Assembly (NCBI GenBank): GCA_965226885.1
Contig: CBDDEL010000017.1
Location: forward strand, 256,001 to 320,000
Length of the DNA: 64,000 bases
Direction of reading: 5' to 3'
Source of the DNA: Opitutales bacterium
Lineage (GTDB): Bacteria > Verrucomicrobiota > Verrucomicrobiia > Opitutales > UBA2987
Positions within the stretch are counted from its first letter, which is position 1. Every line of letters starts with the position of its first letter. Below the pieces are notes generated by a model that was not told the origin of the DNA, made no database searches, and worked only from the letters and a program-made list of their open reading frames with translations. Made by a program: the position numbers and the translations under genes. Of this stretch, positions 6,732-23,953 are shown piece after piece.

Positions 6732-8298
6732 CCCGGATATTTCATGAAGGGTAAAGTTTGGCTCGTTATTGCTATTGGAGATGGATTTCTTTGTATTTTG
6801 AGCAGATCGTCTTGATTTTTAGGTGTTTTTCAGGGTGTAGAGACACTGCCCCCTTTCCCCCATTGGTTCGGTAGTGCCGGGGGCAGCACCAATGCACCCT
6901 TTAGGTTGGCACCAATCGGCGGGCCGCATGGTTGAAAAGACTGGCCCAAGGATAACTCTCACTTAGGTGAAAGTGAATCGTTCGGGTGTTGCGCACGATG
7001 ACCGCTCCGATCTTGATTAATTTGAGCCGCAGGGTGTGGCATTGGGCCCGCGCCCACTTCGTCCCTTTTAAGGCTAACCGGCGCATGGCTTCCATCAAGG
7101 TGTAGGCCAGCGCCGACAAGAGCAATCGGCACTGATTGGCCCACCATTGATGGGCGCTGGTGCGCTCGCTGAACAATTGCATCTGTTCCTTGATTCGGTT
7201 CTCCATTTCACCGCGGCCACAGTATACCTTGTCGTAAAGCTCCTGGGGATCGCCCGGCAGGTTCGTCACCACGAAGCGCGGGTTGGACCCCTGTGCGGTG
7301 TGTTCGGCTTTATGGATGACCAACCGCAGCCATCGCCACGAATCGGCAGCATAGACGAAGTCCTGGAATAACCGTTGTTTTTTACCCCTTAGTTCGAACC
7401 ATTCTTTGGCCTGCTTTTGCAACTGCTGGGCGTCTTGCTGCAAGCGTGCATTGCGAGCCATCCCCACGATGTAACTAACTTCGTTGCGGTCGCACCAAGA
7501 GAGTATCCGGTCTCGACAAAATCCACTGTCGGCGCGCCAAATAATCCGCGTACGGGGCCAGCTTTGGCGAATCCGTTTAACCAGCAATTTGAGGATGGCC
7601 CCGGCATGCTTGCTGGCATCGATCTTGCTCGGCCGCAGGTAGGCCACCAGCAGCTGATCACCGCAAAAAACATATAGCGGCAGAAAACAGTAATGATCAT
7701 AATAACCGTGGAAAAAACGTCCCTCCTGGAGCCCGTGCACCGGATTGTCGGTGCCGTCAAAGTCCAGGATGATCTCTTCGGGTTCCTCGGCAAAGGAGCC
7801 CATGAACTGTTCGACCAACAGCTCGTTTACCGCAAAGGCCGCCCGCCGATCCTGCCCGTTTTCAAAACGACACAAAGTCGGCGCGCTGGCCAACGTTTCA
7901 ATGCGCCCCGTTACCGTTTGCAACAATGGATCGTGGCGCAGGGTATCAAAGTCGTTCAAATCCTCATAGCCCGCCACCAGCCCGTAAACGCGCTGCCGCA
8001 GCATCCCCAAGACCTCATGGCGTACTTTGCCCTTCTGCCGTTTGTCCACTAACTGTCGGGCCGCTCGTTCGGTCAAGCCCAACTGCCGATCCACTTCCCG
8101 GATCAAAAGCAGTCCGGCATCCGAAGTAACCTCTCCGCCCTTGAAATCAACCCCCACACGGCGGCCTTTTACCCTTGTCAACTGTAGCTTTAATTGTTTA
8201 CCTTTTGTCATCGCTGATATTGCTTTAATTATTGATCTATCCTGCTGTATATCAGCAGTTAAGCATATCAACGATACTTTTTTTACGAAATATCCGGG
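6732..8298 (-). mobile_element. IS1380-family element, complete copy
   Basis: Terminal IRs CCCGGATATTTC/GAAATATCCGGG; CTAG on both flanks. Confidence 0.92.
6901..8211 (-). CDS. IS1380-family transposase
   Basis: FKGGEVTSDAGLLL, GYEDLND, LDFDGTD, RADSGF and YCGRGEMENRIKE motifs. Confidence 0.92.
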   Translation of the reverse strand: MTKGKQLKLQLTRVKGRRVGVDFKGGEVTSDAGLLLIREVDRQLGLTERAARQLVDKRQKGKVRHEVLGMLRQRVYGLVAGYEDLNDFDTLRHDPLLQTVTGRIETLASAPTLCRFENGQDRRAAFAVNELLVEQFMGSFAEEPEEIILDFDGTDNPVHGLQEGRFFHGYYDHYCFLPLYVFCGDQLLVAYLRPSKIDASKHAGAILKLLVKRIRQSWPRTRIIWRADSGFCRDRILSWCDRNEVSYIVGMARNARLQQDAQQLQKQAKEWFELRGKKQRLFQDFVYAADSWRWLRLVIHKAEHTAQGSNPRFVVTNLPGDPQELYDKVYCGRGEMENRIKEQMQLFSERTSAHQWWANQCRLLLSALAYTLMEAMRRLALKGTKWARAQCHTLRLKLIKIGAVIVRNTRTIHFHLSESYPWASLFNHAARRLVPT

Positions 8299-8558
8299 CT
8301 AGCGGCGCTGTACCACAGGGAAAGAACTTACTCCTCAATTGTAGAGTAGAGTAGACGAAATTTAAAAAAAAGACCGATTAAACCCTGCGAGAAGTCGGCT
8401 ACTTGCTGGTTTAATCTTCAATCGATAGAGATTACCCCGCGATGTCCAGAGTAAAAAAATCGCCTTCCGGCCCGCTATTTTAAACGGATTTCAAGGTTTT
8501 TAAGGAATAATCTCTGTTAGAACATTATTCTGCGAAGGGACACCAGGTTTTAAAAATC

Positions 8559-8635
<77 letters not shown>

Positions 8636-8977
8636 GAAATTAATAGCTTATTATCAACGATTTACAAATTTTTCCCTTAAAAAGGCGTCAGTTTTGTTAA
8701 TCTGAACGAACCGTAAATTCTGTTGAATTAAGCTAATTTGCGTCGAATCTGCTCCAGGTCAATTGTATTGTTTTAATCTACCACCTTTTTGAAGGAATGG
8801 CGAAAAAACCCAGGATAGCCTTGATCAACTTCAAAAATTTCCAGACTATCATGCCCCCATCCAATTTCAGTTTCGTTTGCTCCTGCTGAAGAGAACGGGG
8901 TAACTGTTGACAGTCAAATAAAACGGCGGTTATTTGGGAAGAGAAAATAATGCGGCAGAGGAGAACTTCACAAAAAA

Positions 8978-10096
8978 ATGATCATAATTAATATTAAGAC
9001 CACATTGTTGGTAAACGCTTGTTTCATTCTATTAACCTCAAGCATTTATGCGAAGGGACAGGAGATGTGGCACAAGGGTAATACTCATGCCCATACCACA
9101 CTTAGCGGGCACGCTGATTCGAGTCCTGAGGCAGTTGCTAAATGGTACCACGACCACGGATACAATTTTCTTATTCTGAGCGAACATAATATCTTTATCG
9201 ATCCATCTACGGTGAAACCGCCAAAAAACGCGCGGGAAGACTTTATCCTCATACCGGGTGAAGAAATTACCGGGCATCTGCGTGTCCATAGCACAGCGAT
9301 TAATATACCCAAACTTATCGATTGGACATTCCAGAGCGAGAGCGTGGCCGCTGTTATCCAAAACCATTTGGATAATACCAAGGCGTTGGGTGGGGAGCAT
9401 ATTCTCAATCATCCAACCTACCGCTATGCTGTCACTGCCGAAGATATGAAACAAGTCAAGGGTTTGCACTTGTTCGAGCTGCACAATGGGCACCCCAATA
9501 CCTATCGACACACCCATGAAGTGGATGAAGGGTATGTAACCACCGAAGACATGTGGGATGATATGCTGACTTCCGGCCTTGTCGTCTATGGGGTTTCCTC
9601 GGACGACACTCATACGCTAAAGGAATGGGAAACCGAGGCGAGCAATCCCGGTCGAGGCTGGATAATGGTTCGATCCAGGAGTTTGACGCCAGAGAGTATC
9701 ACAAAAGATATACGAGCCGGAAATTTCTATGCCACCAGCGGTGTCATTCTCAGTCGAGTCGATGCATCGGAAGATACCTATTCTGTCGAGGTGGATCGCA
9801 GTGCCACTATGGAGGAATTAAATTCTCCCTATAACCTGGGGCGAAAGCTTCCCGATGCCACGGGTGGATTCTTGATCGAGTTCATCGGTCCCACCGGATA
9901 TGTCGTCAAACACATTCATGGGACAAAAGGAACCTTTCGTATTCGACCGGAAAATGCCTACATCCGTTGCCGGGTTACCTACACACGACGTGCAACCCAT
10001 GGGTTTGAACAGTTTTTTGCCTGGACACAGCCTGCTTTTACGGACGACCGGTTGGCCAGAACGCAGGCCGAGGACCACGATTATTTTGGCGAGTAA
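8978..10096 (+). CDS. Secreted PHP-family (CehA/McbA-like) metallo-phosphoesterase
   Basis: Signal peptide; GNTHAHT, SEHN, GEEIT, NHP and SDDTH metal-binding motifs. Confidence 0.8.
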   Translation: MIIINIKTTLLVNACFILLTSSIYAKGQEMWHKGNTHAHTTLSGHADSSPEAVAKWYHDHGYNFLILSEHNIFIDPSTVKPPKNAREDFILIPGEEITGHLRVHSTAINIPKLIDWTFQSESVAAVIQNHLDNTKALGGEHILNHPTYRYAVTAEDMKQVKGLHLFELHNGHPNTYRHTHEVDEGYVTTEDMWDDMLTSGLVVYGVSSDDTHTLKEWETEASNPGRGWIMVRSRSLTPESITKDIRAGNFYATSGVILSRVDASEDTYSVEVDRSATMEELNSPYNLGRKLPDATGGFLIEFIGPTGYVVKHIHGTKGTFRIRPENAYIRCRVTYTRRATHGFEQFFAWTQPAFTDDRLARTQAEDHDYFGE

Positions 10097-10125
10097 TTAA
10101 TAAATTACAAAAGTCAAAATATTGG

Positions 10126-10189
10126 TTGACAGGGGCAGGAATTGGATAATATATTCTAAAAAGTTACTTAATATGGATAATATATCCAT
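10126..10189 (+). promoter_or_regulatory. Putative sigma70 promoter with paired operator sites upstream of the RpiR operon
   Basis: TTGACA at 10126, TATATT at 10150 (18-bp spacer); TGGATAATATAT repeated at 10143 and 10174; perfect ATGGATA-N3-TATCCAT at 10173-10189. Confidence 0.5.
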
Positions 10190-10221
10190 TCTGCATTCGA
10201 GAAATATTTCTTAACAAAGCG

Positions 10222-11124
10222 ATGAACAGGATTCCCGCCCCGGACACTCTGATGCCCCTACCTGAAACGGCATTGGAGGATAAGGCAATACCGCTGCAAG
10301 AATATTCCTTTCCGCTTCGTTTCAGCATCTTGCGCAACTCCCTCACCGAGGCTGAAAGAAAAGTGGGTGATTACTTCCTTAAAAACCCGAAGGCCGCCTA
10401 CCTATCCATAACAGAGGTAGCGCAGGACAGTTCCTTGGGCTATGGTAGCATCATCCGGTTTTGCCGCAAAATCGGGTGCACGGGGTTCCAGGATTTCAAG
10501 GTCCTGTTAGCTCAGGAATTGACTGCTTTCCAGCAAGCATCGAAAGGGAAAGATTCGGATTTGATCTTCGATTACGGGGAAAAAATTAAAACTGATTTAT
10601 TGAACACGATTCAGTTGCTGGACCGGAATGTCCTGCAAAAGATTGCCCGCTTGCTCAGCCAAACCCGATTCGTTCTCATTTCGGGAGTAGCCGGATCCGC
10701 TGCTTTGGGCCACGGCTTAAACTATCGCCTGAGCCGGGTGGGAATCTGTTCAACGGTGGATTGTGAAGGCTACACCATGGCGATCCGGGCAGCCGCCCTG
10801 GAACCGTGGGACATCTTCTTTGCTATTAGTTTTTCCGGTGCGACAAAAGATTTGCTCAGTTCTGTTGAAATCGCGAAAGAACGGGGCGCAAAAATCATTG
10901 CATTAACTAATTTTATCCAGTCGCCGCTGGTAGATTTAGCTGATTACAGCCTCTTTGGGGCCACCGACCGCGATCCCTTTTCCTGCGAGGTATTCTCCAA
11001 TGTGACGAGAGATTTTGTGCTCGATCTTCTTTTTGTTCAAATATGTGAAACCCATCCTCAAGCCCATGAAACAATACAGCGAACTTTCGAAGCGATTTCC
11101 GGGCGGCGCGGCGCATTTGAATAA
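10222..11124 (+). CDS. MurR/RpiR-family transcriptional regulator
   Basis: HTH LTEAERKV..SITEVA..IIRFCRKIGCTGFQDFK plus SIS domain (ISFSGATKDL, GAKIIALT). Confidence 0.92.
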   Translation: MNRIPAPDTLMPLPETALEDKAIPLQEYSFPLRFSILRNSLTEAERKVGDYFLKNPKAAYLSITEVAQDSSLGYGSIIRFCRKIGCTGFQDFKVLLAQELTAFQQASKGKDSDLIFDYGEKIKTDLLNTIQLLDRNVLQKIARLLSQTRFVLISGVAGSAALGHGLNYRLSRVGICSTVDCEGYTMAIRAAALEPWDIFFAISFSGATKDLLSSVEIAKERGAKIIALTNFIQSPLVDLADYSLFGATDRDPFSCEVFSNVTRDFVLDLLFVQICETHPQAHETIQRTFEAISGRRGAFE

Positions 11125-11138
11125 TTGTTTACAAAAAC

Positions 11139-12401
11139 ATGGCGAAAAGTATATCCAATCACCCAAAACCCGGTTTCCGGGCGGCCCAATGGAGAGTTCT
11201 CCTGGCCACCATGTTTTGTTACCTCTTCTATTATACGGGCCGCCAGACTTTGGGGTTCGCCATCCCGGGCATCGAGGCCGAACTCGGATTGAGTAAAAAA
11301 GAGATCGGCTGGATGATAACGGGGCTATTGTGGGCTTATGCCATGGGGCAGGCAGTCAACGGTAATCTGGGAGACAAATTTGGGGGCCGCCGGATGATGA
11401 GTCTCGGTGCCGTGCTCTCCTGTGGTTTTAATTGGATGGTCAGCTTTGGAACAAGTTTTACCGGTCTGTTAATGCCCTGGGTCGCCAATGGTTTTTCCCA
11501 ATCCATGGGATGGGCGCCGGGCAGCAGGGTTTTATCAAACTGGTGGGGCCACCATGAACGAGGGAAAGCCTTCGGGTTTTATGTTTTTGCCGCCGGCATG
11601 TCCTCGGTCCTGGCTTTTGTATCCTCCCTCATTATCCTTGATGTTTTATCCCTCAACTGGAGATGGATTTTTCGCCTTCCCGTTCTCCTCCTTCTGGTGG
11701 GGGGGCTGGCTTACTATTTAATCGTCCGCGACCGCCCGGAAGATCTTGGGTTCCAGTTGGATGAGGACGATGCAAACCATGGGCAAGGCGAGGAGAAAGT
11801 GGCCGTCGGCGAGACTTCCCTCCAACGCTACATGGCCGTGTTGAGCAATTGGCGATTTATGATAGCCAGCATTGGAATCGGGTTTCAGAGCTCCGCCCGG
11901 TATGGATTGATCTATTGGGTGCCGGTACATTTTTTAGGGGCCGATTGGAAAAATTCCGACGCCAAGTGGATCAGTATAGCCTTGCCCGTGGGAATGGCCC
12001 TCGGTGCCCTTACCGGGGGATGGGTATCCGATCGGGTATTTAATTCTGTGCGCTGGAAACTCTACTCTACATTCCTGATCCTGGCCGCGGTAGCTTCCTT
12101 TGCCATGTTCTTCATTCCACGTGACCATTGGGCAGGTATCCTGTTCCTGTTTTTCTGTGGGTTTTTTGCCTACGGATCGCAAGCCGGATTCTGGCCCCTG
12201 GCACCGGATTTACTGGGCTCAAAACGGGCCGGAACAGGCGTGGGAGTAATGAATTTTTTTGCCTACCTATTTGCCGGCCTGGTCAACCCCCTGATCGGGT
12301 GGGTGATCATCTCGAATAATGAAAATACCGCCCTCGTTTTTCCCATAGTGGGCGTAGCTTGTGTGGCCGGCGCAATAACCGGATTATTTGTCAGACGTTA
12401 A
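11139..12401 (+). CDS. MFS transporter, OPA (GlpT/UhpT-like) family
   Basis: YLFYYTGR (OPA Arg), QSMGWAP, WW...ERG and DRPEDLG motifs; about 12 hydrophobic segments. Confidence 0.88.
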   Translation: MAKSISNHPKPGFRAAQWRVLLATMFCYLFYYTGRQTLGFAIPGIEAELGLSKKEIGWMITGLLWAYAMGQAVNGNLGDKFGGRRMMSLGAVLSCGFNWMVSFGTSFTGLLMPWVANGFSQSMGWAPGSRVLSNWWGHHERGKAFGFYVFAAGMSSVLAFVSSLIILDVLSLNWRWIFRLPVLLLLVGGLAYYLIVRDRPEDLGFQLDEDDANHGQGEEKVAVGETSLQRYMAVLSNWRFMIASIGIGFQSSARYGLIYWVPVHFLGADWKNSDAKWISIALPVGMALGALTGGWVSDRVFNSVRWKLYSTFLILAAVASFAMFFIPRDHWAGILFLFFCGFFAYGSQAGFWPLAPDLLGSKRAGTGVGVMNFFAYLFAGLVNPLIGWVIISNNENTALVFPIVGVACVAGAITGLFVRR

Positions 12402-12433
12402 GAGAATTGGAGAAGGGAGAGAGTGCAAATGCT

Positions 12434-13360
12434 ATGAACGAAATAAAACAGAATAATAAAAAGAAAAATCGGGAGCCGATTCTAAAACGGAAGACCGCGA
12501 TTTCCTACAAAACGGAGGAAAAAACGGTCTTGCGCGGTTATAATTTAAGCGACCTGGCGGAAGAAGGTTATTCCTTTTGCGACGCCATGTATGTTTTATT
12601 CCAAGGCAGGATTCCAACCGAACCGGAGGAAAAAATGCTCAAATACGAGATGGGTGAATTCATGGAACACTCCATGTCGCCCTCGGCGGCTTCGGCCATA
12701 GCCGTTACCGCTGGCCGGCCCAACCTGCCTGCTGCCGTAGCTGCCGCCGTTATGACATTCGGCAGCGCCCACGGTCCCGGGGCGGCCCATGGATACATGA
12801 TGAACATCTACCTGGAGCGTGCCCGCAAAGAGGGAAAGTCCCTTGATGAAATGGCCAAAATTCTGGTCGATGAATACATGGATAACAATGTGCCCGTAAT
12901 GGGCATGGGCCAGCCGCAGCATCGCGACGGAGATCCTCGGGCCGAACCCACCCACCTCAAACAGGAAGAATTGGAGATCGACGGCCTCTACCTCGAATTT
13001 CAGCGGGCGATTGAAAAACACTTTCACGCCAGGAGAAAAAAAGAAAATCGCTCCTATGTGCCGGTCAACTGTGTGGGAGCGGGCAATACGGCCCTCTGCG
13101 ACATCGGGTTTGCCCCCAACGCGGCTTGGTGCATCGGCAGCGTGGTGCGTGGCTATAGTTGCGCCGCCCACGCCGTTTACACCTTGAAAAAAGGCCGGGC
13201 CTGGGCGGCCTCCAGAAATGAGCCCATGGTGCAGATGCTGGACCTTTCCATGATTAATTATATTGGCCCGGCAGATCGTCCGGTACCGACTCAGGAAGAA
13301 CGGCAAGAATATGCCAAAAAACAAAAAGAAGACGGAGAGTATAAAAAATGGGTAATTTAA
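12434..13360 (+). CDS. Citrate-synthase-fold (citryl-CoA-lyase-like) protein, subunit A, divergent active site
   Basis: TAIS..LRGYNL.DL, EHSMSPS, FGSAHG, MGMGQPQH..DPRA, VNCVGA and YIGPADRPVP. Confidence 0.75.
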   Translation: MNEIKQNNKKKNREPILKRKTAISYKTEEKTVLRGYNLSDLAEEGYSFCDAMYVLFQGRIPTEPEEKMLKYEMGEFMEHSMSPSAASAIAVTAGRPNLPAAVAAAVMTFGSAHGPGAAHGYMMNIYLERARKEGKSLDEMAKILVDEYMDNNVPVMGMGQPQHRDGDPRAEPTHLKQEELEIDGLYLEFQRAIEKHFHARRKKENRSYVPVNCVGAGNTALCDIGFAPNAAWCIGSVVRGYSCAAHAVYTLKKGRAWAASRNEPMVQMLDLSMINYIGPADRPVPTQEERQEYAKKQKEDGEYKKWVI

Positions 13361-14382
13361 ATGAGAAAAAAATCGGCAATCTCTCGGACCCGAAATTGCC
13401 CTATCCTTACATTGGCCGGGAATACGGCACGATTCCGCTGGACGCCTCCCGCCGACCCTTTCAATGGGTATCGGAAGTAGCCTATAAAAACATTCATCGC
13501 ATCGTTACAAGAGGATATGACACGACCGAACTGGTCGAGGAAGGCTATGGCGTAGTGGACATCCTCTTTGTCGATTTCCAGGCCAGGATTCCCACTCTTG
13601 AGGAAGAAAAAATGTTAAACTACATTATGATTCTTTCCCTCGAAGATGGTCTTTCCATGCCCGCCATCATGTCACGTCTGGTGGCCAAATCGAAAACCTT
13701 CCTGACTCAGGCTTGCGGCAGTGCCATCCTCGCTTTCGGTCATGCCTATGGGGCTTATTCGGCTTTCGGCGACATGCTCGGCGAATACCTGGCAAGGGCT
13801 CGAAAAGAGGATTTGTCCCTATCGCAGATGGCAGAAATTCTTGTGCGGGAACGACTGCCGGGTGAAATACTTGGAGTCTCCGACCTGATGCTGGAAGATC
13901 CCGCTGCCCAACGATTGCTGGCCAGAGCGGAAAAACTGGGAGTGGCCGGAGAGTCTATCGCCTTTCTCGGTGAAATCGCCAAATCCGCCCGGGAACAAGG
14001 AGAATCGCCCGTCGATGTGGACCTACTCGGGGCCATAGGTGCCACCATGATGGACCTTGGTTTTACTCCCGAAGCCACCTGGACGATTATCGCGGTGACA
14101 CGATCTTTTGGAGCTGGGGCTCATTTCATCGAGGAAATCGAGCGTGAGGACTTTAACCGTTTAGGTGAAACACTCACTCCCAAGGAGTTTTACGATGGTC
14201 CCGAGGACCGTCCCGTGCCGCCGCTGGCAGATCGCCACAAAACGGCCCAACCTGCCCAGACTCACACACTGGAGGACTGGAGGGAATCATTTGAGAAAAG
14301 AAAACAGCTTCCCGGAAGTGGATTCTCCATTGTGGAAGAAATTGAAGATCCGACCAAAAAAGGAGTTAAAGAGAAACGATGA
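13348..14382 (+). CDS. Citrate-synthase-fold (citryl-CoA-lyase-like) protein, subunit B, degenerate paralogue
   Basis: RGYDTTELVEEGY, RIPT.EEEKML.Y, FGHAYG, GAIGA.MMDLGF and YDGPEDRPVP align with subunit A; overlaps both neighbouring genes. Confidence 0.7.
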   Translation: MGNLNEKKIGNLSDPKLPYPYIGREYGTIPLDASRRPFQWVSEVAYKNIHRIVTRGYDTTELVEEGYGVVDILFVDFQARIPTLEEEKMLNYIMILSLEDGLSMPAIMSRLVAKSKTFLTQACGSAILAFGHAYGAYSAFGDMLGEYLARARKEDLSLSQMAEILVRERLPGEILGVSDLMLEDPAAQRLLARAEKLGVAGESIAFLGEIAKSAREQGESPVDVDLLGAIGATMMDLGFTPEATWTIIAVTRSFGAGAHFIEEIEREDFNRLGETLTPKEFYDGPEDRPVPPLADRHKTAQPAQTHTLEDWRESFEKRKQLPGSGFSIVEEIEDPTKKGVKEKR

Positions 14383-15770
14383 GAGGCAATATTGATGAAA
14401 TGTATGCCAGAGCCCGCCAAGCTTTTCGGGAGGTCGAATACTGGCCTCAGGAAAAAGTCGATGAAATGGTGGCGGCGGCCGGTTGGGAATGGCAAAAGGA
14501 AGAAAACCGAAAAACATTGGCCAAACTCGCGGTGGAGGAATCCCGCGGTATCGGTATTTACGAGGACAAAGTAGCCAAGATTCGCACTAAAGTGTGCGGG
14601 ACCCTGCGAGACCAGCTGGGCGCAAAAACTTGCGGTTTGGTTAATGAGGATAAAACCAAAGGCCTGAAAACTTTCGCCAAACCTATGGGCGTGGTCGCCG
14701 TTGTCGTCCCTTGCACCAACCCGGAATCGACCGTTTGCTGTCTCGGCCTGAGCCTCTTGAAAACACGCAATGCCATGATCGTTTCCCCGCATCCCCGGAC
14801 GCCGCAAAGTACCTGGCAAACAGTGGAATACGGGAGAGCAGCGCTACGTAAAGTGGGCGCTCCAGAGGATCTGTTGCAATGCATTGAGCTACCCAGCCAC
14901 GAAATGACCCATGAATTGATGGCGCGATGCGATTTTGCGGTGGCCACGGGGGGAGCGGCTCTGGTCAGGGTCGTTTACGAGGCTGGCAGACCTTGCCACA
15001 CTGTTGGGGCCGGGAACGTCGTTTCGATTATTGATAAAACGGTCGATCTCAAAGATACGGCAGCCAAAATCGTTAAATCCAAAGCAGCCAATAATTCAGC
15101 CTCCTGTTCCTCTGAAAACGCCGTTGCCATTGAAGAGGTCGTTTACGATGAAATGATGGAGGCACTGCAAAAAGAAGGCTGTTATCTATGCACAGACGAA
15201 GAACGTGAAAGGCTGAGAAAGTATTACTGGCCCGACGGCCAAAATCTTAACCGGGAGGTGGTGGCCAAGCCGGCTTCCGTTATTGCCGAAAAAGTGGGTA
15301 TCGAAATCCCCCACGGCACACGGGTTATCATGGTCATAGGCATTAAACCAGGCCCCGAAGACCGTTTCTCCGGCGAAAAGATTTCCCCCCTTTTAACGGT
15401 ATGGAAATGGCAGGATTTTAAAGAAATAATAGAGCGGGTAAAAGAAATCCTCCGGTTTTCCGGAGAGGGACATTCCGTTTCGCTGCACAGCAAACTGGAA
15501 GAGCGTCAAGACGAACTGGCTACGCAAGTCAATGTCGGCCGGGTCATTTGCAACATGGGTCACACGGCCGGCAACAGCGGTGGATGGGCCAGCGGAATTG
15601 CCACCACAGATAGTCTTGGATGCGGTTCCTGGGCCGGTAACATGACCTCCGACAATATCGACTGGAGGCATTTCCTCAACTACACTTGGGTATCAATCCC
15701 CATTCCCGAACGCATCCCGACAGATGAGGAGTTGTTCGGCCAATATCTGAAAAAATGGGAATCCGATTAG
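14379..15770 (+). CDS. CoA-acylating aldehyde dehydrogenase (SauS/SucD/EutE-like)
   Basis: PCTNP, SPHPR, ATGGAALV, GAGN, catalytic CSSEN, EKISP and LGCGSWAGN. Confidence 0.88.
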   Translation: MRGNIDEMYARARQAFREVEYWPQEKVDEMVAAAGWEWQKEENRKTLAKLAVEESRGIGIYEDKVAKIRTKVCGTLRDQLGAKTCGLVNEDKTKGLKTFAKPMGVVAVVVPCTNPESTVCCLGLSLLKTRNAMIVSPHPRTPQSTWQTVEYGRAALRKVGAPEDLLQCIELPSHEMTHELMARCDFAVATGGAALVRVVYEAGRPCHTVGAGNVVSIIDKTVDLKDTAAKIVKSKAANNSASCSSENAVAIEEVVYDEMMEALQKEGCYLCTDEERERLRKYYWPDGQNLNREVVAKPASVIAEKVGIEIPHGTRVIMVIGIKPGPEDRFSGEKISPLLTVWKWQDFKEIIERVKEILRFSGEGHSVSLHSKLEERQDELATQVNVGRVICNMGHTAGNSGGWASGIATTDSLGCGSWAGNMTSDNIDWRHFLNYTWVSIPIPERIPTDEELFGQYLKKWESD

Positions 15771-15776
15771 AAGCGG

Positions 15777-18047
15777 TTAATCGTAAAAGATAACGGTGGA
15801 ATCGGAATAGCGAAAGAAAGCTCGTCTTTCGGCCGGTTTGTCAAAAAAGAACATCCAACCCTGATCGTCAAAAAAGTAGAGAATTGGATATAATGAGCGA
15901 TTGGTGTAAATCCAGATTCCAATGACCGGATCGTATAAAAAAATATTTTCGCGGTCGGATAGCGGCGAGATGTAAGTGAACTTATGTTGCGGGTGATAAA
16001 TCCAGGGTTGGAAGCTGGTGTTGTAATCGCCGAACCAGGGGGACTGGAACCAATCCTCCAGCTCTAAAATGGGATTGCAGGCGCCTCCCAGCGGGATGAT
16101 ATCTTCGCGAAGGACCGCCTCACCTCCAATGATCGTCACTTTGTCGAATCCAAGAATTTCGTTGCCCGCGCCAGAGGTTGCTTTCAGGACGATTCGCAGT
16201 TGCAGCGTATTTCCGGTAGCGTTGACCAGGAATGACAATTTGCTAAACATATTGCCAATAGGGGTTTCCTCAGGAGAAATCAAGGGGCCATTTTCGACGC
16301 TGGATTGAAGACGCCCGATCTCCTCAAAGGGTCCATTGTCGATGCTCGCCTGGATTGCCATTTTGTCTCCGTTTGACATCGAGTTGTCGAAGCCGCCGGG
16401 ATCGGAAGCGGCCACCAGGAGGGTTACCTCAATGCCGGTAAGACCCGTGATCGGGAGCGGGTCAAAAACCACTGCGCCCATGCCTGAAAAGCCAAGCAAA
16501 GCATCTCCATCATCAAATCCGGTATAGCCCCCCTGTCCGTCGATATTTTCGGCCGAAAAATACCAGTCCCCGTCAGGGCTGGCAAAATTGCCATCCGCCG
16601 AAGAGCGATGAAAATAGGCATTGAAGCGCGTGATTGCCGCACCCATAATGTTGTAGCGAGTTCCATCGCCATCAGTCTCGAAAGATTCTTCGAGAAGCAC
16701 AACCGGCAACCCTGAAACACTGATTTGCCGGGAACTAGACGTGGTAGGCGCAAATACCTCATTACCCGTTTGTTCGGCCAGCAGATTAGTCGAACCCGTG
16801 CCGACAATCGTCAGCGTTGAGCCCGATACGGTGGCCACATCGGGATTTGAACTACTGTAGGTAATGGGCAATCCGGTTAGATTTCCCCTCATTTTGAGAT
16901 CCGCAATAAAGGCATGGTGGTCGGAAATATAGGATGTCGCCTGCTGCTCGGGATATCGATTCGCACCCGCCGCAATGCTGGGATGCGGTGATGGCATGGT
17001 CGTCGATGGGTCATCCTGGGCATGATATACCTCCACTCCGGTGGCGATAAACTCACTGTTTTCATGGACGACCCAGTCGATCCTTTTAGAGGACTCCCCG
17101 AAGACGTTTTGGCGGGTATGCAGTGAATCTGGTCCAGGCCCGAAACCGAGCCTGGGAACCACCCCGGAACTGACTGCCGAATCCATCAACCCGATATCCC
17201 AGAGCGGTTGGAGTTGCAGGGTGCCATCCGGCATCTTGTGCTGCGGTTCAACATTGAGATCGCCAATCAGGATAACCGGATTGTTGGCAGCGGCGAGGGC
17301 CGGAGCGGCATTGAGTTCACTGTATTGAATAGACCCATCGGCTGGTTCAGGAAGATCGACATCGAAATGGGCGGTAAAAACATCTATGGTTCGAGAACTG
17401 TTGGTCAAAGTCGTTTTAATCATCGACTTGATATCGCTGCCAAGACTTGTGGAATGGATGGAGGGATCGCCCACCAGAGTCCACGGAGAGCGGTAAAAGG
17501 TGGCCACCCCCCACCAGTCTCCCCCGGAGGAACCCGTTAAACCAATATTATGGGTCCAGAATTGATAGTCCCAGACATCCTCGCTCTCAAGATTGTTGAG
17601 TGTGGTTTTTATGATTTCCGACTGCTCTGAATCCCTTCTGCCAACGCGCCCGTCATTGACGGTTTTTTGCCCGCCGATCACCTCCTGAAGACCAAATATA
17701 TCCAGGTTTTGTTGAAAAATACGTTCCGCGATTTCAGGTATAATAAGCGGCCATAATTCCGGCTCAGTGTATTGGGTGGAAATGCCTCCCGAAGTGGTGG
17801 CGGCATACCCGCCGATACCGGTATGGATGTTGAAACTCATGACCCTGATGGCGTCCCCTTCGAAATCAAAACTTTCTGCTTCGAGTTCAATATCCTCGTC
17901 ATCGATGCAAAACCGCAAGGGCGGCTCAAAAATCACGGTTTGGGGTTTTTGTGAAAGGGCCAATGGGGCGGTAATTATTAAGAAAAGAAACGCCACACCA
18001 TAGGTATAAGCATTAGCATTTATACATTTATTTAAGAATAGAGTCAT
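15777..18047 (-). CDS. Secreted endonuclease/exonuclease/phosphatase (EEP) domain protein with Ig-like and Trp-rich C-terminal domains
   Basis: Signal peptide; MSFNI, LQEV, IGDLN, RIDW and SDH motifs; GLPITYSSSNPDVATVSG Ig-like segment; WFGD..PWIYH tail. Confidence 0.82.
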   Translation of the reverse strand: MTLFLNKCINANAYTYGVAFLFLIITAPLALSQKPQTVIFEPPLRFCIDDEDIELEAESFDFEGDAIRVMSFNIHTGIGGYAATTSGGISTQYTEPELWPLIIPEIAERIFQQNLDIFGLQEVIGGQKTVNDGRVGRRDSEQSEIIKTTLNNLESEDVWDYQFWTHNIGLTGSSGGDWWGVATFYRSPWTLVGDPSIHSTSLGSDIKSMIKTTLTNSSRTIDVFTAHFDVDLPEPADGSIQYSELNAAPALAAANNPVILIGDLNVEPQHKMPDGTLQLQPLWDIGLMDSAVSSGVVPRLGFGPGPDSLHTRQNVFGESSKRIDWVVHENSEFIATGVEVYHAQDDPSTTMPSPHPSIAAGANRYPEQQATSYISDHHAFIADLKMRGNLTGLPITYSSSNPDVATVSGSTLTIVGTGSTNLLAEQTGNEVFAPTTSSSRQISVSGLPVVLLEESFETDGDGTRYNIMGAAITRFNAYFHRSSADGNFASPDGDWYFSAENIDGQGGYTGFDDGDALLGFSGMGAVVFDPLPITGLTGIEVTLLVAASDPGGFDNSMSNGDKMAIQASIDNGPFEEIGRLQSSVENGPLISPEETPIGNMFSKLSFLVNATGNTLQLRIVLKATSGAGNEILGFDKVTIIGGEAVLREDIIPLGGACNPILELEDWFQSPWFGDYNTSFQPWIYHPQHKFTYISPLSDRENIFLYDPVIGIWIYTNRSLYPILYFFDDQGWMFFFDKPAERRAFFRYSDSTVIFYD

Positions 18048-18280
18048 GACAAATTGAATCAGTTTGATCAAGGAAGGTATTTTCGGATGACAGAGTACCA
18101 TACCTTATACCCCATCCCATTTAAGTGCAAACCCTCCGCAGTAAGATCCTTACGTAGCGAACCACTATCATCTTTAAAATGTGGAACCAAATCGACCCAG
18201 TTAACACCTGAAGTATCAGCAAGAGCCGCCAGTTCTGTATTTAATTGATCAATGGTGCCATTATTTCGAGAACCCCAGGT

Positions 18281-19613
18281 TGAAATGGACGGGGAAAACT
18301 GGACAGTGGAATAAGGTGGTCTTGAACCACTAAATCCGCTAACCTATGAATGTTATTAAATCACGAAAGAGAAGACAATACAGTGCTGAGTTTAAAGCCC
18401 GAGTGGCCCTGGAAGCCATCAGGGGCGCTCATACCATCAACGAGATCGCCGGTCGTTTTGAGGTGCATCCCAACCAGGTGACCCAATGGAAGAAGCAGCT
18501 TTTGCAGGGAGCAACGGAGCTGTTTTCGCGCCAGCGGCAGACTCTCAGCAAGGACAACGAGACGGAAAAAGATCACCTTTACCAGGAGATTGGAAAGCTG
18601 AAAGTAGAATGCGATTGGCTAAAAAAAAAGTCTGAACAATTCGGTTGGTGAGAGGCGCAAGATGGTGCAACCACTTCAAGGAAAAATCAGTATCGGCAGG
18701 CAATGTCAGTTGCTGGGGCTGGCCCGCGGCAGCTATTACTATCGGGCCCGTGCCCAGTGCGAGCAGAACGTTCTCTACATGCATCGCATGGATGAGCTCT
18801 ACACCCAATATCCGTTTTTTGGTTCTCGCCGGATGACCCAGTGGCTGCGTCGAGAGGGCCATGCAGTGGGACGAGGCCGCATCCAGCGGCTCATGCGCCA
18901 AATGGGCCTGGAGGCTATTTATCCGCGTCGAAACTTGAGCCAGGGGCACCGGCAGCACCGCATTTTCCCTTATCTGCTGCGGGGTTTGGCGGTCGAGCGG
19001 CCCGACCAGGTATGGTGCAGCGACATCACTTACCTGCGGCTGAGCCGAGGATTCCTTTTCTTGACCGTGGTGTTGGACTGGTTCAGCCGCTACGTGTTGA
19101 GCTGGCAGCTTTCCAACACCCTGGAGAGCCGCTTCTGTGTGCTCGCCCTGGAGGAAGCTCTGAGGCGGGCCCAACCTCAAATCTTCAACACCGATCAAGG
19201 CAGCCAGTTTACCGGCAGCGAGTTCACCTCGGTGCTGGGGCAAGCCGGGGTGCGCATCAGCATGGACGGGCGTGGCCGCTACCTGGACAACATATTTGTT
19301 GAACGCTTTTGGAGAACCCTCAAGTATGAAGACATTTACCTGCGCGAATACGCCACGGCAAAGGAAGCCAGCGAAGGGATAGCCCGCTACCTGGACTTCT
19401 ACAACCACCTGCGCCCCCACCAAGCCCTGGGCTACCGGACCCCGGCCGAAGTCCATGCAATCGGAGCAAAACCAACCTCCCCGCCAATACAGCTTGCGGG
19501 CACCTGCGTGCCCGTCTTTGGCTAAGGACAAAATATATTTTTAAAAAATAATATGAACACGATTTCCACCTTAATCCCACGTCAAAATTGTCCAAACAAC
19601 CCCGTCCACTTCA
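18281..19613 (+). mobile_element. IS3-family element type B, copy 1
   Basis: Ends TGAAATGGACGGGG / CCCCGTCCACTTCA; 3-bp TSD GGT; A9 frameshift run between orfA and orfB. Confidence 0.93.
18346..19525 (+). CDS. IS3-family transposase OrfAB (orfA 18346-18651, orfB to 19525; programmed -1 frameshift)
   Basis: HTH orfA; rve motifs WCSDITY, TDQGSQF, DNIFVERFWRTLKYE. Confidence 0.9.
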
Positions 19614-20103
19614 GGTATCATCCCAAACCGGTAGCACGCTCTGTAGGTAAACCTTCGTCTGAGGACTCTTTTTCTTAATAAATTCGAGGATTTCCCCTAT
19701 TTTATCCCGGACTTCAGTGACGGATTTTTCCCGGTCGAGGTCGTTGGTACCAATCATTAGAAAAACTATTGCCAGTTTGCCCTCGGTAACCTCTTCGATT
19801 CGTTTCATCACGCCCCAGGCAGTATCGCTGGAGATTCCACGGTTGGTTACCTGCTCCAATCCGGTCAATTCGCGCCATTCACAGCCATCGGTGATACTGT
19901 CCCCGAGAAAACATATTTCGCCTTCTGGATTGGGCAAACTTCGGAATAAAGAAACCCTGTGTTTCCAGTAACCCGAAAATTCTGTGATATTTTTCTGCCC
20001 AAATCCCGAATGGGAAATGAGAATCAGCAGTGTTATGGCCAACAGGTTGTACTTTAGTTTCATCATGGTTTAAAAAATTAATGGCGCATACCATAATTAC
20101 CTA

Positions 20104-20414: not shown

Positions 20415-21977
20415 CCCGGATATTTCATGAAGGGTAAAGTTTGGCTCGTTATTGCTATTGGAGATGGATTTCTTTGTATTTTGAGCAGATCGTCTTGATT
20501 TTTAGGTGTTTTTCAGGGTGTAGAGACACTGCCCCCTTTCCCCCATTGGTTCGGTAGTGCCGGGGGCAGCACCAATGCACCCTTTAGGTTGGCACCAATC
20601 GGCGGGCCGCATGGTTGAAAAGACTGGCCCAAGGATAACCACTTAGGTGAAAGTGAATCGTTCGGGTGTTGCGCACGATGACCGCTCCAATCTTGATTAA
20701 TTTGAGCCGCAGGGTGTGGCATTGGGCCCGCGCCCACTTCGTCCCTTTTAAGGCTAACCGGCGCATGGCTTCCATCAAGGTGTAGGCCAGCGCCGACAAG
20801 AGCAATCGCCACTGATTGGCCCACCATTGATGGGCGCTGGTGCGCTCGCTGAACAATTGCATCTGTTCCTTGATTCGGTTCTCCATTTCACCGCGGCCAC
20901 AGTATACCTTGTCGTAAAGCTCCTGGGGATCGCCCGGCAGGTTCGTCACCACGAAGCGCGGGTTGGACCCCTGTGCGGTGTGTTCGGCTTTATGGATGAC
21001 CAACCGCAGCCATCGCCACGAATCGGCAGCATAGACGAAGTCCTGGAATAACCGTTGTTTTTTACCCCTTAGTTCGAACCATTCTTTGGCCTGCTTTTGC
21101 AACTGCTGGGCGTCTTGCTGCAAGCGTGCATTGCGAGCCATCCCCACGATGTAACTAACTTCGTTGCGGTCGCACCAAGAGAGTATCCGGTCTCGACAAA
21201 ATCCACTGTCGGCGCGCCAAATAATCCGCGTACGGGGCCAGCTTTAGCGAATCCGTTTAACCAGCAATTTGAGGATGGCCCCGGCATGCTTGCTGGCATC
21301 GATCTTGCTCGGCCGCAGGTAGGCCACCAGCAGCTGATCACCGCAAAAAACATATAGCGGCAGAAAACAGTAATGATCATAATAACCGTGGAAAAAACGT
21401 CCCTCCTGGAGCCCGTGCACCGGATTGTCGGTGGCGTCAAAGTCCAGGATGATCTCTTCGGGTTCCTCGGCAAAGGAGCCCATGAACTGTTCGACCAACA
21501 GCTCGTTTACCGCAAAGGCCGCCCGCCGATCCTGCCCGTTTTCAAAACGACACAAAGTCGGCGCGCTGGCCAACGTTTCAATGCGCCCGTTACCGTTTGC
21601 AACAATGGATCGTGGCGCAGGGTATCAAAGTCGTTCAAATCCTCATAGCCCGCCACCAGCCCGTAAACGCGCTGCCGCAGCATCCCCAATACCTCATGGC
21701 GTACTTTGCCCTTCTGCCGTTTGTCCACTAACTGTCGGGCCGCTCGTTCGGTCAAGCCCAACTGCCGATCCACTTCCCGGATCAAAAGCAGTCCGGCATC
21801 CGAAGTAACCTCTCCGCCCTTGAAATCAACCCGCACACGGCGGCCTTTTACCCTTGTCAACTGTAGCTTTAATTGTTTACCTTTTGTCATCGCTGATATT
21901 GCTTTAATTATTGATCTATCCTGCTGTATATCAGCAGTTAAGCATATCAACGATACTTTTTTTACGAAATATCCGGG
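20415..21977 (-). mobile_element. IS1380-family element, copy 2, transposase pseudogenised
   Basis: Both IRs present; nonsense mutation at 21244, frameshift near 21585, 3-bp deletion near 20640; flanks CTAA/TTAG do not match. Confidence 0.92.
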
Positions 21978-22086: not shown

Positions 22087-22902
22087 TCAATGGATTTGAG
22101 CTGCCAACCATTGTGGGCGATTAGTGGTGATACCATCCACGCCCGCTTGTTTTAACCTGCGGGCCACGGCGGGATCGTCAACCGTCCAGACATAAACCTC
22201 GAGCCCGTTGCGGTGGACCTCGGCGATGGAATCTTCATTGACGATGGCATCGATGGCTTTTACGTTGATGCCGTCTGCCCCCACCTTTTTCGCCCGTTCT
22301 ATCAGCTCTTCGATTGAAGGCTCCCAGGCATCGGTTTCTTTATTTTTCTTAAAGGAGGATAAGCCGTAGATTTTGTAATGGGGAAAGGCTTTTGTGGCGG
22401 CAGCCACTGTATCCCAGTTGAAACTGATAATGACAATTTGCTCAGGGTCCAGACCGGACCTGGCAATTGCCTTTTTCAGCTCTGGAATTATGTCGGGACC
22501 TATTTTTATTTCGACTACTATTTTTCGCCCTTCGGGAACGGTAGACAAAACTTGATTCAGGAGCGGAATTTTTTCACCTTTCCATTTTTCGCCTTTATGC
22601 TGGCCGGCATCAAGTTGCAGCAGCTCCTCGACTGTTTGATCTATCACATCCCGGTCGCGTCCATAAAGTTTGAGGGTATTAAAATCATGGAGGACGACCA
22701 ATTGCCCATCTTTCGAGAAGTGGATATCGATTTCTACCGCCGGGGCCTCTTTTTCCCAAGCCAGGTTCACGGAGGCCAGGGTATTTTCAGGCGCGTCATA
22801 GGATGCGCCGCGGTGGGCAATTATAAGGCATTCTTTTCCATTAACGATTACCATCGCAAGGATTGCTGAAATCAAAGTTAGTGTAATATTTCTGAACGGC
22901 AT
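22087..22902 (-). CDS. Glycerophosphodiester phosphodiesterase (secreted)
   Basis: IAHRGAS..APENTL, EIDI..SKDG..VVLHD, EIK, WTVD and GITTN. Confidence 0.92.
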   Translation of the reverse strand: MPFRNITLTLISAILAMVIVNGKECLIIAHRGASYDAPENTLASVNLAWEKEAPAVEIDIHFSKDGQLVVLHDFNTLKLYGRDRDVIDQTVEELLQLDAGQHKGEKWKGEKIPLLNQVLSTVPEGRKIVVEIKIGPDIIPELKKAIARSGLDPEQIVIISFNWDTVAAATKAFPHYKIYGLSSFKKNKETDAWEPSIEELIERAKKVGADGINVKAIDAIVNEDSIAEVHRNGLEVYVWTVDDPAVARRLKQAGVDGITTNRPQWLAAQIH

Positions 22903-23200
22903 GATCTTATGGTCTTAATGATCTTGGTGATGGTATTGGATAGCACAACGCACTCATTATCAACGACAAAAATAATTGGCATCTTTCAGAATTCAAATCC
23001 TTCCTTATTTATCGTAAATAGCTCCTAAACATCCCTCAAAAGCAATTACTAAGGAAATCCAGGCGTTATTAAAGGTCAACTGCTTTGCCTGAGCCGCATG
23101 AAAAAATTGCGGCGATTTTATTCGTCACTAAAAATACCTGGCATTGGGAATGAAATAATACCTTTTATCGATGGTTGCTTGTCTGAAATACGAGATTTAC

Positions 23201-23953
23201 CTACTGCAATCCGACGAAGACAAACAACCAGGCTCCGCCAACTCCACCCAGAATGGGGCCGAGAATTGGAACCCAACTGTATTTCCAGTCGGAACTTCCC
23301 TTTCCGGGTATAGGCAAAATAGCGTGGGCGATTCGTGGGCCGAAGTCCCTGGCCGGATTTATAGCGTAACCAGTGGGCCCTCCCAAGGAGATTCCTATTG
23401 CCAAGACAAGAAGCCCGACCAGTAGGGGTTGCAGCCCAGAGCTGAAAACTGCCGAGAGATCGAGATCACCGGGTTTGGCCAATTCCTGCGCATTGGCGGC
23501 TATGGCCAGAACCCCGAATACCAGCATAGCGGTTCCAATAATCTCGGTAATTAAATTGTTTGGGTAGTTGCGGATGGCGGGCCCGGTACAAAATACGCTT
23601 AATTTTGCATCCGCCCCCTCTGTTTCTTTCCAATGGGGGAAGTAGGCCAGCCATACCAGGATGGCTCCGGTCAAGGCCCCTGCTACCTGCGATGCAACAT
23701 ACCCGGCAACCTGACACCAGGGAAAGGCCCCGATTGAAGCCAACCCAATTGTGACTGCCGGATTGATGTGCGCGCCGCTGATCCGACCCACCGAATAAAC
23801 CGCAATGGCTACCGCTAGTCCCCACCCGACAGTGATGACTATCCAGCCGGAGCCTTCGCCCTTGGATTTTTTCAGAAGAACAGTGGCAACAGCGCCATCT
23901 CCCAAAAGAATTAGAATCAACGTTCCGGTAAACTCGGCTAAATAAGGTGACAT
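23201..23953 (-). CDS. glpF: Aquaglyceroporin, glycerol uptake facilitator
   Basis: SGAHINPAVT and GYAINPARD (glyceroporin NPARD signature). Confidence 0.92.
   Translation of the reverse strand: MSPYLAEFTGTLILILLGDGAVATVLLKKSKGEGSGWIVITVGWGLAVAIAVYSVGRISGAHINPAVTIGLASIGAFPWCQVAGYVASQVAGALTGAILVWLAYFPHWKETEGADAKLSVFCTGPAIRNYPNNLITEIIGTAMLVFGVLAIAANAQELAKPGDLDLSAVFSSGLQPLLVGLLVLAIGISLGGPTGYAINPARDFGPRIAHAILPIPGKGSSDWKYSWVPILGPILGGVGGAWLFVFVGLQ

Follow-up and report, generated by a model that had tools for sequence, protein, structure and literature searches.

What reaction is served by an operon in which two proteins of the citrate synthase fold stand directly before a CoA-acylating aldehyde dehydrogenase (ALDH)? 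The question is raised by positions 10222-15770 of a 64,000-nucleotide stretch of an Opitutales genome, referred to here in its whole length as the window (C17:256001-320000; genome of 5.48 Mb in 17 contigs, 96% complete). An original prediction, made from the sequence alone, had read the five genes there as a CoA-dependent catabolic operon for organophosphonates or sulfonates, and this interpretation is, overall, supported by our analysis. A conserved core consisting of the two citrate-synthase-fold proteins (here CS-A and CS-B) and the ALDH would dispose of phosphonoacetaldehyde (PnAA), the common intermediate when 2-aminoethylphosphonate (AEP), hydroxy-AEP, and 2-hydroxyethylphosphonate (HEP) are degraded. 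We hold with considerable confidence that this trio is a CoA-dependent PnAA sink distinct from both PhnX and PhnY-PhnA; the assignment of the individual step, by which the CS pair cleaves the carbon-phosphorus (C-P) bond of phosphonoacetyl-CoA, is one toward which we lean slightly. The five genes are as follows.

10222-11124, + strand: RpiR/MurR-family regulator, 300 aa (HTH_6 PF01418, 62.2 bits; SIS PF01380, 48.2 bits)
11139-12401, + strand: OPA-like MFS transporter, 420 aa (MFS_1, 168.7 bits, over cut-off; TIGR00881, 176.1 bits, cut-off 407.75)
12434-13360, + strand: CS-A, 308 aa, within an open reading frame (ORF) of 333 aa at 12359-13360 (PF00285, 66.5 bits, cut-off 27)
13348-14382, + strand: CS-B, 344 aa (PF00285, 34.2 bits, cut-off 27)
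14379-15770, + strand: CoA-acylating ALDH, 463 aa (SauS NF047625, 488.3 bits, cut-off 600)

The genes are separated by 14 nt (RpiR/MFS) and 32 nt (MFS/CS-A, counted from 12434) and then overlap by 13 nt (CS-A/CS-B) and 4 nt (CS-B/ALDH); the start of CS-A was placed at the ATG at 12434 (308 aa) and not at 12359 because its homologues span 298-308 aa. All five match their homologues in length and none contains an insertion sequence (IS), with an IS1380 element (6901-8271) and an IS3 copy (about 18545-19531) lying on either side of the block. The predicted arrangement of five tightly packed, co-directional, IS-free genes, the last three overlapping, was confirmed with every gene intact, and the Pfam family Citrate_synt was found in both middle genes, as had been claimed of them. 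No megablast match to the operon was obtained in E. coli genomes or in the plasmid collection.

A scan for CS-A with one genome per species returned 235 loci, the best 80 of which were analyzed together with flanks of up to 10 kb either way. Of the 60 loci that extended 3 kb or more downstream of the pair, 58 encoded the ALDH (exceptions, L029 and L055), and because of this recurrence the CS-A/CS-B/ALDH string is not attributable to chance.

The citryl-CoA-lyase-fold pair and its aldehyde dehydrogenase

For both CS-A and CS-B, the best NCBIfam model was citryl-CoA lyase NF004869 (121.9 and 94.2 bits, respectively, missing the cut-off of 212), and neither protein attained the cut-off of any citryl-CoA lyase or citrate synthase model (PRK06224 group). 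The nearest solved structure by sequence was likewise the same for both (6hxp; E 2.6e-21 for CS-A and 9e-12 for CS-B). An AF2 model of CS-A built from a 99-row alignment reached a pLDDT of 92.2, superseding one from a 14-row alignment (45.7), and Foldseek placed 6hxp first against it (TM 0.81, target-normalized; E 4e-13), followed by the citryl-CoA lyase modules of ATP-citrate lyases and then by citrate synthases. The ESM Atlas returned only clusters auto-named citrate synthase.

The catalytic positions were read from MAFFT alignments with the two canonical citrate synthases of the same genome and with 20 representatives of distant relatives; hhalign, which paired only 36 columns of the CS-A profile with a single citrate synthase, was not relied on for the residues. 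HMMER alignments of both proteins to 6hxp agree with the residue assignments, which were these.

His of GPLHGG: His in CS-A (H113), Tyr in CS-B
His of GFGH: Gln in CS-A (Q160), Val or Ser in CS-B
Arg of DPR: Arg in CS-A (R169), Ala in CS-B
Asp of N[AV]DF: Val in CS-A (V214), Leu in CS-B
Later Arg: Arg in CS-A (R239), Arg in CS-B

The residue roles are those known for citrate synthase, whose catalytic His, His, and Asp are numbered 274, 320, and 375 in the pig enzyme. This canonical triad is incomplete in CS-A, with one of three residues kept, and fully replaced in CS-B, and the second His and the Asp are kept in most citryl-CoA-lyase-like relatives of 25-33% identity. The original prediction had itself named an ordinary citryl-CoA lyase as the outcome that would tell against it; the loss of the catalytic residues excludes both that and an ordinary citrate synthase. 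The citryl-CoA lyase of Hydrogenobacter thermophilus (Ccl; 6hxp) and the ATP-citrate lyase module resemble CS-A in fold, size, first His, and the two Arg, whereas CS-A has other residues in place of the second His and the Asp, CS-B has none of the three catalytic residues, there is no reductive tricarboxylic acid cycle context, and, unlike the single Ccl gene, CS-A and CS-B are two distinct paralogous genes that are always adjacent (CS-B lies beside CS-A in 79 of the 80 loci). We propose that CS-A is the catalytic subunit and CS-B a degenerate, non-catalytic structural partner. A conserved C-terminal tail of CS-B (consensus GSGFSIVEEIEDPSKK; window about 14290-14382) is without counterpart in CS-A or citryl-CoA lyase and may be a docking peptide.

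Conservation of CS-A is high: the best 120 of its 505 matches were all 77-96% identical, and the relatives in the 80 loci, spread over at least 10 phyla, were 76-94% identical, the closest of them (92-94%) in Opitutales bacterium bins. An enterobacterial source for the window, to which its G+C content of 51% had at first pointed, is rejected in view of these Opitutales relatives. Median identity to the window proteins across loci was 79% for CS-A, 67% for CS-B, and 68% for the ALDH, and in CS-A 155 of 308 positions were at least 97% conserved (71 sequences). A library clustered at 50% identity held 28 CS-A representatives at E 1e-30, mostly fragments, and the closest full-length outgroups were 64% and 43% identical. 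Judged by these sequence comparisons, CS-A is an isolated, tight, and extremely constrained family.

The ALDH had been predicted to be SauS-like, and SauS (NF047625) was indeed its top model (488 bits), ahead of the N-terminal half of AdhE (372.7 bits) and the general PF00171 Aldedh family (76.7 bits). SauS was also the top family, ahead of AdhE, for 16 of 16 further homologues (474-506 bits) and hence for 17 of 17 with the window's own, although all 17 scored under the equivalog cut-off of 600 bits. The motif NN[SA]ASCSSE occurred in 55 of 57 ALDH sequences, and its Cys is presumably the nucleophile, by analogy. SauS belongs to the same class of CoA-acylating ALDHs and acts on the sulfonate counterpart of PnAA, whereas the cassette ALDH stands in phosphonate context and scores under the SauS cut-off; it is proposed, from sequence, to be a CoA-acylating phosphonoacetaldehyde dehydrogenase that is sister to SauS.

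Neighborhoods and genomes of the carriers

For counts across the 80 loci, ORFs were clustered by BLASTP and recounted with cluster hidden Markov models (HMMs) on six-frame translations; phyla were taken from the labels of database records. By these labels the loci came from Verrucomicrobiota (9), Planctomycetota (16), Chloroflexota (10), Desulfobacterota or "delta" bins (25), Alphaproteobacteria (4), Gammaproteobacteria (7), unspecified Proteobacteria (3), Spirochaetota (2), and Nitrospirota, Bacteroidota, Latescibacterota, and SAR324 (1 each). The recurrent families, in loci out of 80, were as follows.

Core: CS-A 80, CS-B 79, ALDH 71, HAD2 (a 243-aa HAD hydrolase) 53
PnAA-forming: PhnW 41, HpnZ-like Zn-dependent alcohol dehydrogenase (Zn-ADH) 19, PbfA 18
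Further: MFS8 15, LysR 14, phosphonate-associated DUF6 membrane protein 13, RpiR 9
Phosphonate: PhnA 10, PhnD 9, PhnU2 9, PhnE 8, PhnS2 8

At least one phosphonate marker was found in 62 of the 80 loci, and a PnAA-forming enzyme in 57. The neighborhood comparison that had been set in advance for the CS homologues was therefore positive, with PhnW, PbfA, HpnZ-like dehydrogenases, PhnA, and transporters (PhnS2/T2/U2 or PhnD/E, in 8-9 loci each) as the neighbors in these 62 loci. Cluster representatives exceeded the cut-offs of their families (bits/cut-off) for PhnW (424/361), PbfA (714/525), PhnA (479/408), PhnS2 (500/393), PhnU2 (713/593), and PhnE (287/217). The usual gene string was CS-A, CS-B, (PhnW), ALDH, HAD2; among 59 loci that extended at least 1.5 kb 3' of the ALDH, 47 had HAD2 after it.

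The cassette comes in two forms. Desulfobacterota loci carried PhnW (22/25) with LysR regulators and AEP ABC transporters, whereas Verrucomicrobial loci were without PhnW (0/9) and had RpiR and an OPA-like MFS transporter instead (7/9 each). In many Planctomycetota, Latescibacterota, and Verrucomicrobiota loci, the trio was paired with an HpnZ-like dehydrogenase.

Whole genomes were searched for 50 carriers among the 80 loci, picked for their longer loci, with these results.

PhnW over cut-off: 37/50
PhnX over cut-off: 0/50
PhnY over cut-off: 0/50 (near misses at 488 and 506 of 636 bits)
PhnA over cut-off: 14/50

Sub-threshold PhnX matches of 98-155 bits were found in 13 of the 50. PhnA was lacking in 26 of the 37 carriers with PhnW, and 22 of these were also without a PhnX-like match of at least 98 bits. 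An HpnZ-like dehydrogenase (E <=1e-80) was present in 29 carriers, including 11 of the 13 without PhnW, and because one or the other enzyme was present, 48 of the 50 can plausibly make PnAA. As a control, the same searches were run on 201 genomes from the phylum of the window, each with a completeness of at least 90%: PhnX exceeded its cut-off in 8 and PhnW in 7, all 7 of the latter with PhnX, and CS-A was found in 1, the window's own. Taken together, these counts indicate that carriers of the trio lack PhnX, with which PhnW is usually paired, and that PhnW comes with PhnX where the trio is absent. The claim of a route unlike PhnX and PhnY-PhnA agrees with this pattern, which fits a third route from phosphonoacetaldehyde.

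HAD2 was not found in the genomes of three carriers with the trio intact (G001, G002, and G007), and in two more (G026 and G039) it was encoded elsewhere in the genome. Since it is missing from these three and from the window's own genome, HAD2 is not strictly required by the trio.

Other features of the loci deserve mention. MtmB homologues (PF05369, 321 bits), often in tandem, lay beside PbfA or PhnW in L015, L019, L020, L037, L042, and L047; MttB-family proteins adjoined the cassette in L030 and L071, and an 813-aa fusion of FAD oxidase and aminomethyltransferase domains (DAO+GCV_T) did so in L076-L078 and L065. These proteins may serve the demethylation of N-methylated aminoethylphosphonates in anaerobes. 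A 190-aa protein with a weak Janus/Ocnus match (PF05005, 32.5 bits) was found in 9 of the 80 loci, in Desulfobacterota (e.g., L080:16341-16913); the Janus/Ocnus family includes phosphohistidine phosphatase, and this neighbor could hint at a phospho-enzyme intermediate. In L076 (genome G047), PhnW appeared as two adjacent pieces, with no whole-genome PhnW at E 1e-70, and is probably frameshifted or split. A cluster of 5 loci encoding an Fe-dependent alcohol dehydrogenase is probably PhpC-type. One cluster (unk29, 25 loci) was discarded as an artifact, an antisense ORF over HAD2. The presence in the loci of catabolic transporters, of regulators, and of PhnW and PbfA makes a biosynthetic role for the cassette unlikely.

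The proposed route and competing explanations

The route would begin with import of a phosphonate by the OPA-like MFS transporter. PnAA would then be made by a PbfG/HpnZ-like dehydrogenase or PbfA and converted, with CoA and NAD(P)+, to phosphonoacetyl-CoA by the SauS-like ALDH. A CS-A/CS-B heterodimer would hold this thioester as citryl-CoA lyase holds citryl-CoA, with phosphorus at the C3 site; the C-P bond would break with departure of the acetyl-CoA enolate, stabilized by the retained His, to give acetyl-CoA and phosphate. The Asp of citrate synthase, which makes the enolate by deprotonation, would be unneeded in such a cleavage. In the window's lineage, the operon would be controlled by RpiR. 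C-P cleavage by the CS pair fits because the His is retained, the deprotonating Asp is lost, and the ALDH is kin to the enzyme that acts on the sulfonate counterpart; the citryl-CoA lyase family frees an acetyl-CoA enolate from a substituted acetyl-CoA, which is a likeness to the proposed step. In its fullest form, the reading makes CS-A/CS-B a new class of C-P-cleaving enzyme, a phosphonoacetyl-CoA phosphonohydrolase evolved from citryl-CoA lyase by loss of the Asp and with a thioester enolate as leaving group, which together with the ALDH would constitute a third hydrolytic route for PnAA that saves the carbon as acetyl-CoA, would predominate among anaerobic bacteria of sediments (sulfate reducers, Anaerolineae, and Planctomycetota included), and would have spread by gene transfer to at least 10 phyla; this we regard as evenly balanced between being right and wrong.

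Several points weigh against C-P cleavage by the CS pair. The substrate, the product, and the heterodimer are all read from genes. The family labels in the counts come from one annotated representative per recurrent cluster, and no phosphonate marker was seen in the available DNA of 18 of the 80 loci, including the nearest relatives of the window (L001-L004). The 50 carriers are metagenome bins of unstated completeness. With the Asp lost, CS-A has no obvious proton donor for the final protonation of the enolate. PhnA, in 14 of the 50 carriers and in the window, with PhnY below cut-off, fits a route through phosphonoacetate, and in the window genome itself the argument that there is no other sink fails because two intact PhnX-like genes and PhnA are present. 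Finally, hydrolysis of the C-P bond could fall to HAD2 and some other task to the CS pair: the motif I of HAD2 read FDFGQTL in 33 of 45 sequences, so that Gly stands two residues past the nucleophile, and Asp stood there in only 4 of 45. The C-P-cleaving PhnX is also without Asp two residues past its nucleophile.

This last point leads to an alternative in which a HAD-type hydrolase (HAD2 or a PhnX-like enzyme) cuts the C-P bond, either of PnAA, in which case the ALDH would be a plain acetylating acetaldehyde dehydrogenase, or of phosphonoacetyl-CoA, and the CS pair is catalytic or regulatory elsewhere. The position of HAD2 directly 3' of the ALDH in 47 of 59 loci, the loss of the usual second Asp from its motif I, and the presence of PhnX-like hydrolases (TIGR03351) in 5 of the 80 loci and in the window genome all speak for it. 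We nonetheless consider it unlikely: HAD2 is missing from the 96%-complete window genome and from the three carriers named above, the trio being intact in all, a HAD2 representative had no TIGR01422 match at E 1e-8, the ALDHs are closer to SauS than to acetaldehyde dehydrogenases (17/17), and the CS pair, the most conserved part, would be left without a job.

We give an equally low place to the possibility that the ALDH and the CS pair merely replace PhnY, the phosphonoacetyl-CoA thioester being hydrolyzed and PhnA then cleaving phosphonoacetate. PhnA does occur in the window, in 10 of the 80 loci, and in 14 of the 50 carriers, and PhnY exceeded its cut-off in none of the carriers nor in the window genome. 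However, PhnA did not exceed its cut-off in 36 of the 50 carriers, among them 26 of the 37 that have PhnW; a thioester would be made and then wasted, with no gain over PhnY; and the Asp that serves hydrolysis in citrate synthase is missing. The original prediction had likewise seen in the window's phnA without phnY a sign that the ALDH fills the PhnY role: the gene content stood, with PhnA present and PhnY absent genome-wide, but the role it suggests fits only 14 of the 50 carriers.

Less probable still is a C-P cleavage coupled to condensation, in which phosphonoacetyl-CoA would act as a masked enolate, as malonyl-CoA does, toward oxaloacetate or glyoxylate, with phosphate released. CS-A has the fold of a Claisen enzyme and has lost the deprotonating Asp while keeping the enolate-stabilizing His and both oxo-acid-binding Arg. 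The second His of citrate synthase, which polarizes the carbonyl of the oxo acid, is nevertheless Gln in CS-A, and no recurrent gene in the loci would make or use such a product.

A sulfonate substrate, with sulfoacetaldehyde converted to sulfoacetyl-CoA and then desulfonated or hydrolyzed, is very improbable: SauS is the top family of the ALDH and sulfatase-family genes occur in 4 of the 80 loci and in the window, but the ALDH scores stay under the SauS cut-off (474-506 of 600 bits), the annotated recurrent neighbors are phosphonate-specific over cut-offs, the annotated recurrent clusters of the 80 loci include no gene of the taurine, isethionate, or Xsc type, and the sulfatase-family proteins also match the PehA (phosphoric/sulfuric ester hydrolase) model. 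The "or sulfonate" half of the original prediction thus found no support; no sulfoacetate or sulfonate context and no SauT/SauU-type partners were seen among the annotated recurrent neighbors, which are phosphonate families.

The window genome's variant and the place of the route among known pathways

Cleavage of phosphonoacetyl-CoA by the CS pair has also to be set against the particular gene content of the window genome. PhnW (best 157 of 361 bits), PhnX (TIGR01422, best 113.7 of 220 bits), and PhnY (TIGR03250, best 283 of 635.65 bits in the 5.48-Mb genome) were not found there over cut-off, and HAD2 gave at best 51 bits, yet the trio is intact. A probable PbfA lies at C14:481107-482528 (728 bits to the PbfA cluster HMM built in this analysis), and five HpnZ-like matches were obtained. 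One of these is in the window, in what appears as a second organophosphonate block (31143-40103); the aldolase is unexpected in such a cluster.

31143-32282, + strand: HpnZ-like Zn-ADH (TIGR03366, 312.8 bits, cut-off 328.1; next best, threonine dehydrogenase)
32321-33196: class II ketose-bisphosphate-type aldolase, in the operon headed by the HpnZ-like gene
33193-33939: HAD-IA hydrolase, same operon
33956-35293: OPA-like MFS transporter, same operon
About 35340-35702 and 37006-37299: pieces of a PhnX-like hydrolase gene that an IS3 copy interrupts
37269-38783: PhoD-like protein, 5' of PhnA
38844-40103, + strand: PhnA, phosphonoacetate hydrolase (TIGR02335, 489.3 bits, cut-off 407.55)

The HpnZ-like dehydrogenase is, by sequence, probably of PbfG type and would make PnAA from HEP. 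Because PhnW is missing, the imported substrate is probably not AEP, and because a PbfG/HpnZ-like enzyme and a probable PbfA are present, HEP or (R)-1-hydroxy-AEP is our guess from gene content. Two intact paralogous operons outside the window (C14:496784-501307 and C17:749392-754695) each encode an HpnZ/PbfG-like dehydrogenase, an OPA-like MFS transporter, a PhnX-like hydrolase (TIGR03351, 169 of 219 bits), and a D-2-hydroxyacid dehydrogenase, and in several other carrier genomes an HpnZ-like dehydrogenase and a PhnX-like hydrolase lie close together. The trio is here one of several possible PnAA sinks, and the phosphonate assignment in this genome rests on the 76-94% identity of its CS-A to copies in phosphonate clusters.

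The regulator attained no NCBIfam equivalog cut-off; its family stands immediately ahead of the cassette in 9 of the 80 loci, 7 of them Verrucomicrobiota. The transporter had been predicted to belong to the OPA family: TIGR00881 was its best NCBIfam family, at 176 bits against 138 for the galactonate-type TIGR00893, but because the TIGR00881 cut-off was missed we call it OPA-like and do not assign it as a member. Its family (cluster MFS8) recurs in 15 of the 80 loci; AepP, a GlpT-related MFS permease for AEP, is described in the available text of PMC8316502. Upstream of rpiR (10126-10189) the following sites were noted.

10126-10155, + strand: promoter-like TTGACA-18-TATATT, a consensus match only
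10143-10154 and 10174-10185, + strand: two copies of TGGATAATATAT

The second copy sits within the palindrome ATGGATAATATATCCAT. With up to 1 mismatch, TGGATAATATAT occurs twice in the window against 0.26 expected (4 of 100 shuffles attain 2), and a single copy also lies 5' of rpiR in each of the two nearest relatives (L001 and L002); the TGGATAATATAT/ATGGATAATATATCCAT site is, from sequence, a candidate RpiR operator.

The genes that flank the operon are these.

8562-8635, - strand: tRNA gene (Rfam, 65.7 bits), flanked by the IS1380 transposase gene and the CehA-like gene
8978-10096, + strand: CehA/McbA-like metallohydrolase, 372 aa (NCBIfam NF038032, 79.7 bits, cut-off 80)
15777-18101, - strand, convergent with the operon: EEP-domain protein, 774 aa (PF03372, 45.6 bits)
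19611-20066: GDSL-like fragment
22087-22902, - strand, and 24106-25020, + strand: two GlpQ-like phosphodiesterases
23201-24022, - strand: MIP channel
26566-27285: HAD-IIA phosphatase, after an IS3 fragment
27523-28842: GlpT-like transporter (471 bits, cut-off 633)

The CehA-like protein had no Pfam match and no PDB sequence match. Its family adjoins the cassette in 4 of the 80 loci and holds the same position in L001 and L002; the gene is part of the Verrucomicrobial form of the cassette, and its product is a possible accessory phosphonate-ester hydrolase. The EEP protein, also without a PDB sequence match, follows the cassette only in L001 and L002 among the 80 loci, and we would guess it to be a phosphodiesterase that releases the phosphonate head group. 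The glycerophosphodiester block (22087-28842), together with the EEP protein and the GDSL-like fragment, suggests scavenging of lipid head groups. The tRNA gene, the sole hit of an Rfam scan of 8000-19000, may mark the border of an acquired island. The IS load of the window is heavy, and the five-gene operon is spared from it.

IS1380: 6901-8271; fragments at 20584-21147 and 61138-61704
IS3 family: approximately 18662-19525, 25729-26448, 29752-30840, 36083-36946, and 43064-44152
IS21 with helper: 48598-50867
ISNCY-like: from 62611

Among known systems, the closest are the hydrolytic AEP/HEP pathways, in which PhnW, PbfA, PbfG, or PhpC leads to PnAA and PhnX or PhnY plus PhnA follows; they share with the trio the upstream enzymes, the transporters, and PnAA itself, and C-P cleavage enabled by a carbonyl beta to phosphorus would be a common principle. 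They differ in that PhnX and PhnY are under cut-off in 50 of 50 carriers, with the ALDH and two citryl-CoA-lyase-fold proteins in their operon place, and in that they yield acetaldehyde or acetate where the trio would give acetyl-CoA. According to the available text of Piazza et al. (Protein Sci 2026; PMC13576164), PnAA is formed from HEP by dehydrogenases of PhpC type (pf00465) or by PbfG (a pf00107 Zn enzyme, threonine-dehydrogenase-like), and the clusters that encode them, often without phnW and reported from Planctomycetota and Verrucomicrobiota, have phnX or phnY-phnA at their end. In contrast to the clusters in that text, the HpnZ-like gene in 19 of the 80 loci and in the window has the CS-A/CS-B/ALDH trio as its partner.

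The claim that no characterized pathway has this gene set agreed with our searches: no published description of a CoA-dependent phosphonate route was found in the literature searched, which was mostly without subscription journals and supplements. Term searches of the accessible portions of PMC10574752, PMC12366243, and PMC10590968 gave no "citrate," "citryl," "acylating," or CoA thioester in context, and the text of PMC13576164, as far as available, mentions no citrate, acylating enzymes, or CoA. Phosphonoacetyl-CoA was named only in a preprint on flavophos biosynthesis (10.64898/2026.01.15.699783), in the accessible part of which it is an expected product that was not formed. The present analysis contributes the Verrucomicrobial form of the cassette, with RpiR and an OPA-like transporter but neither PhnW nor HAD2, the link to HEP dehydrogenases, the HAD2 motif, and the test on 50 genomes together with its control of 201.

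In the sea and in sediments, phosphonates make up a large share of the organic phosphorus pool, and to our knowledge the enzymatic ways of cleaving the C-P bond are few, namely PhnX, PhnA, PalA, PhnZ-type oxygenases, and C-P lyase. If true, a CoA-dependent route would be new enzyme chemistry in an old fold and would explain the use of AEP by many anaerobes that have PhnW but neither PhnX nor PhnA. Gene-based estimates of phosphonate turnover would then shift, because surveys of phnX, phnA, and phnJ overlook such organisms.

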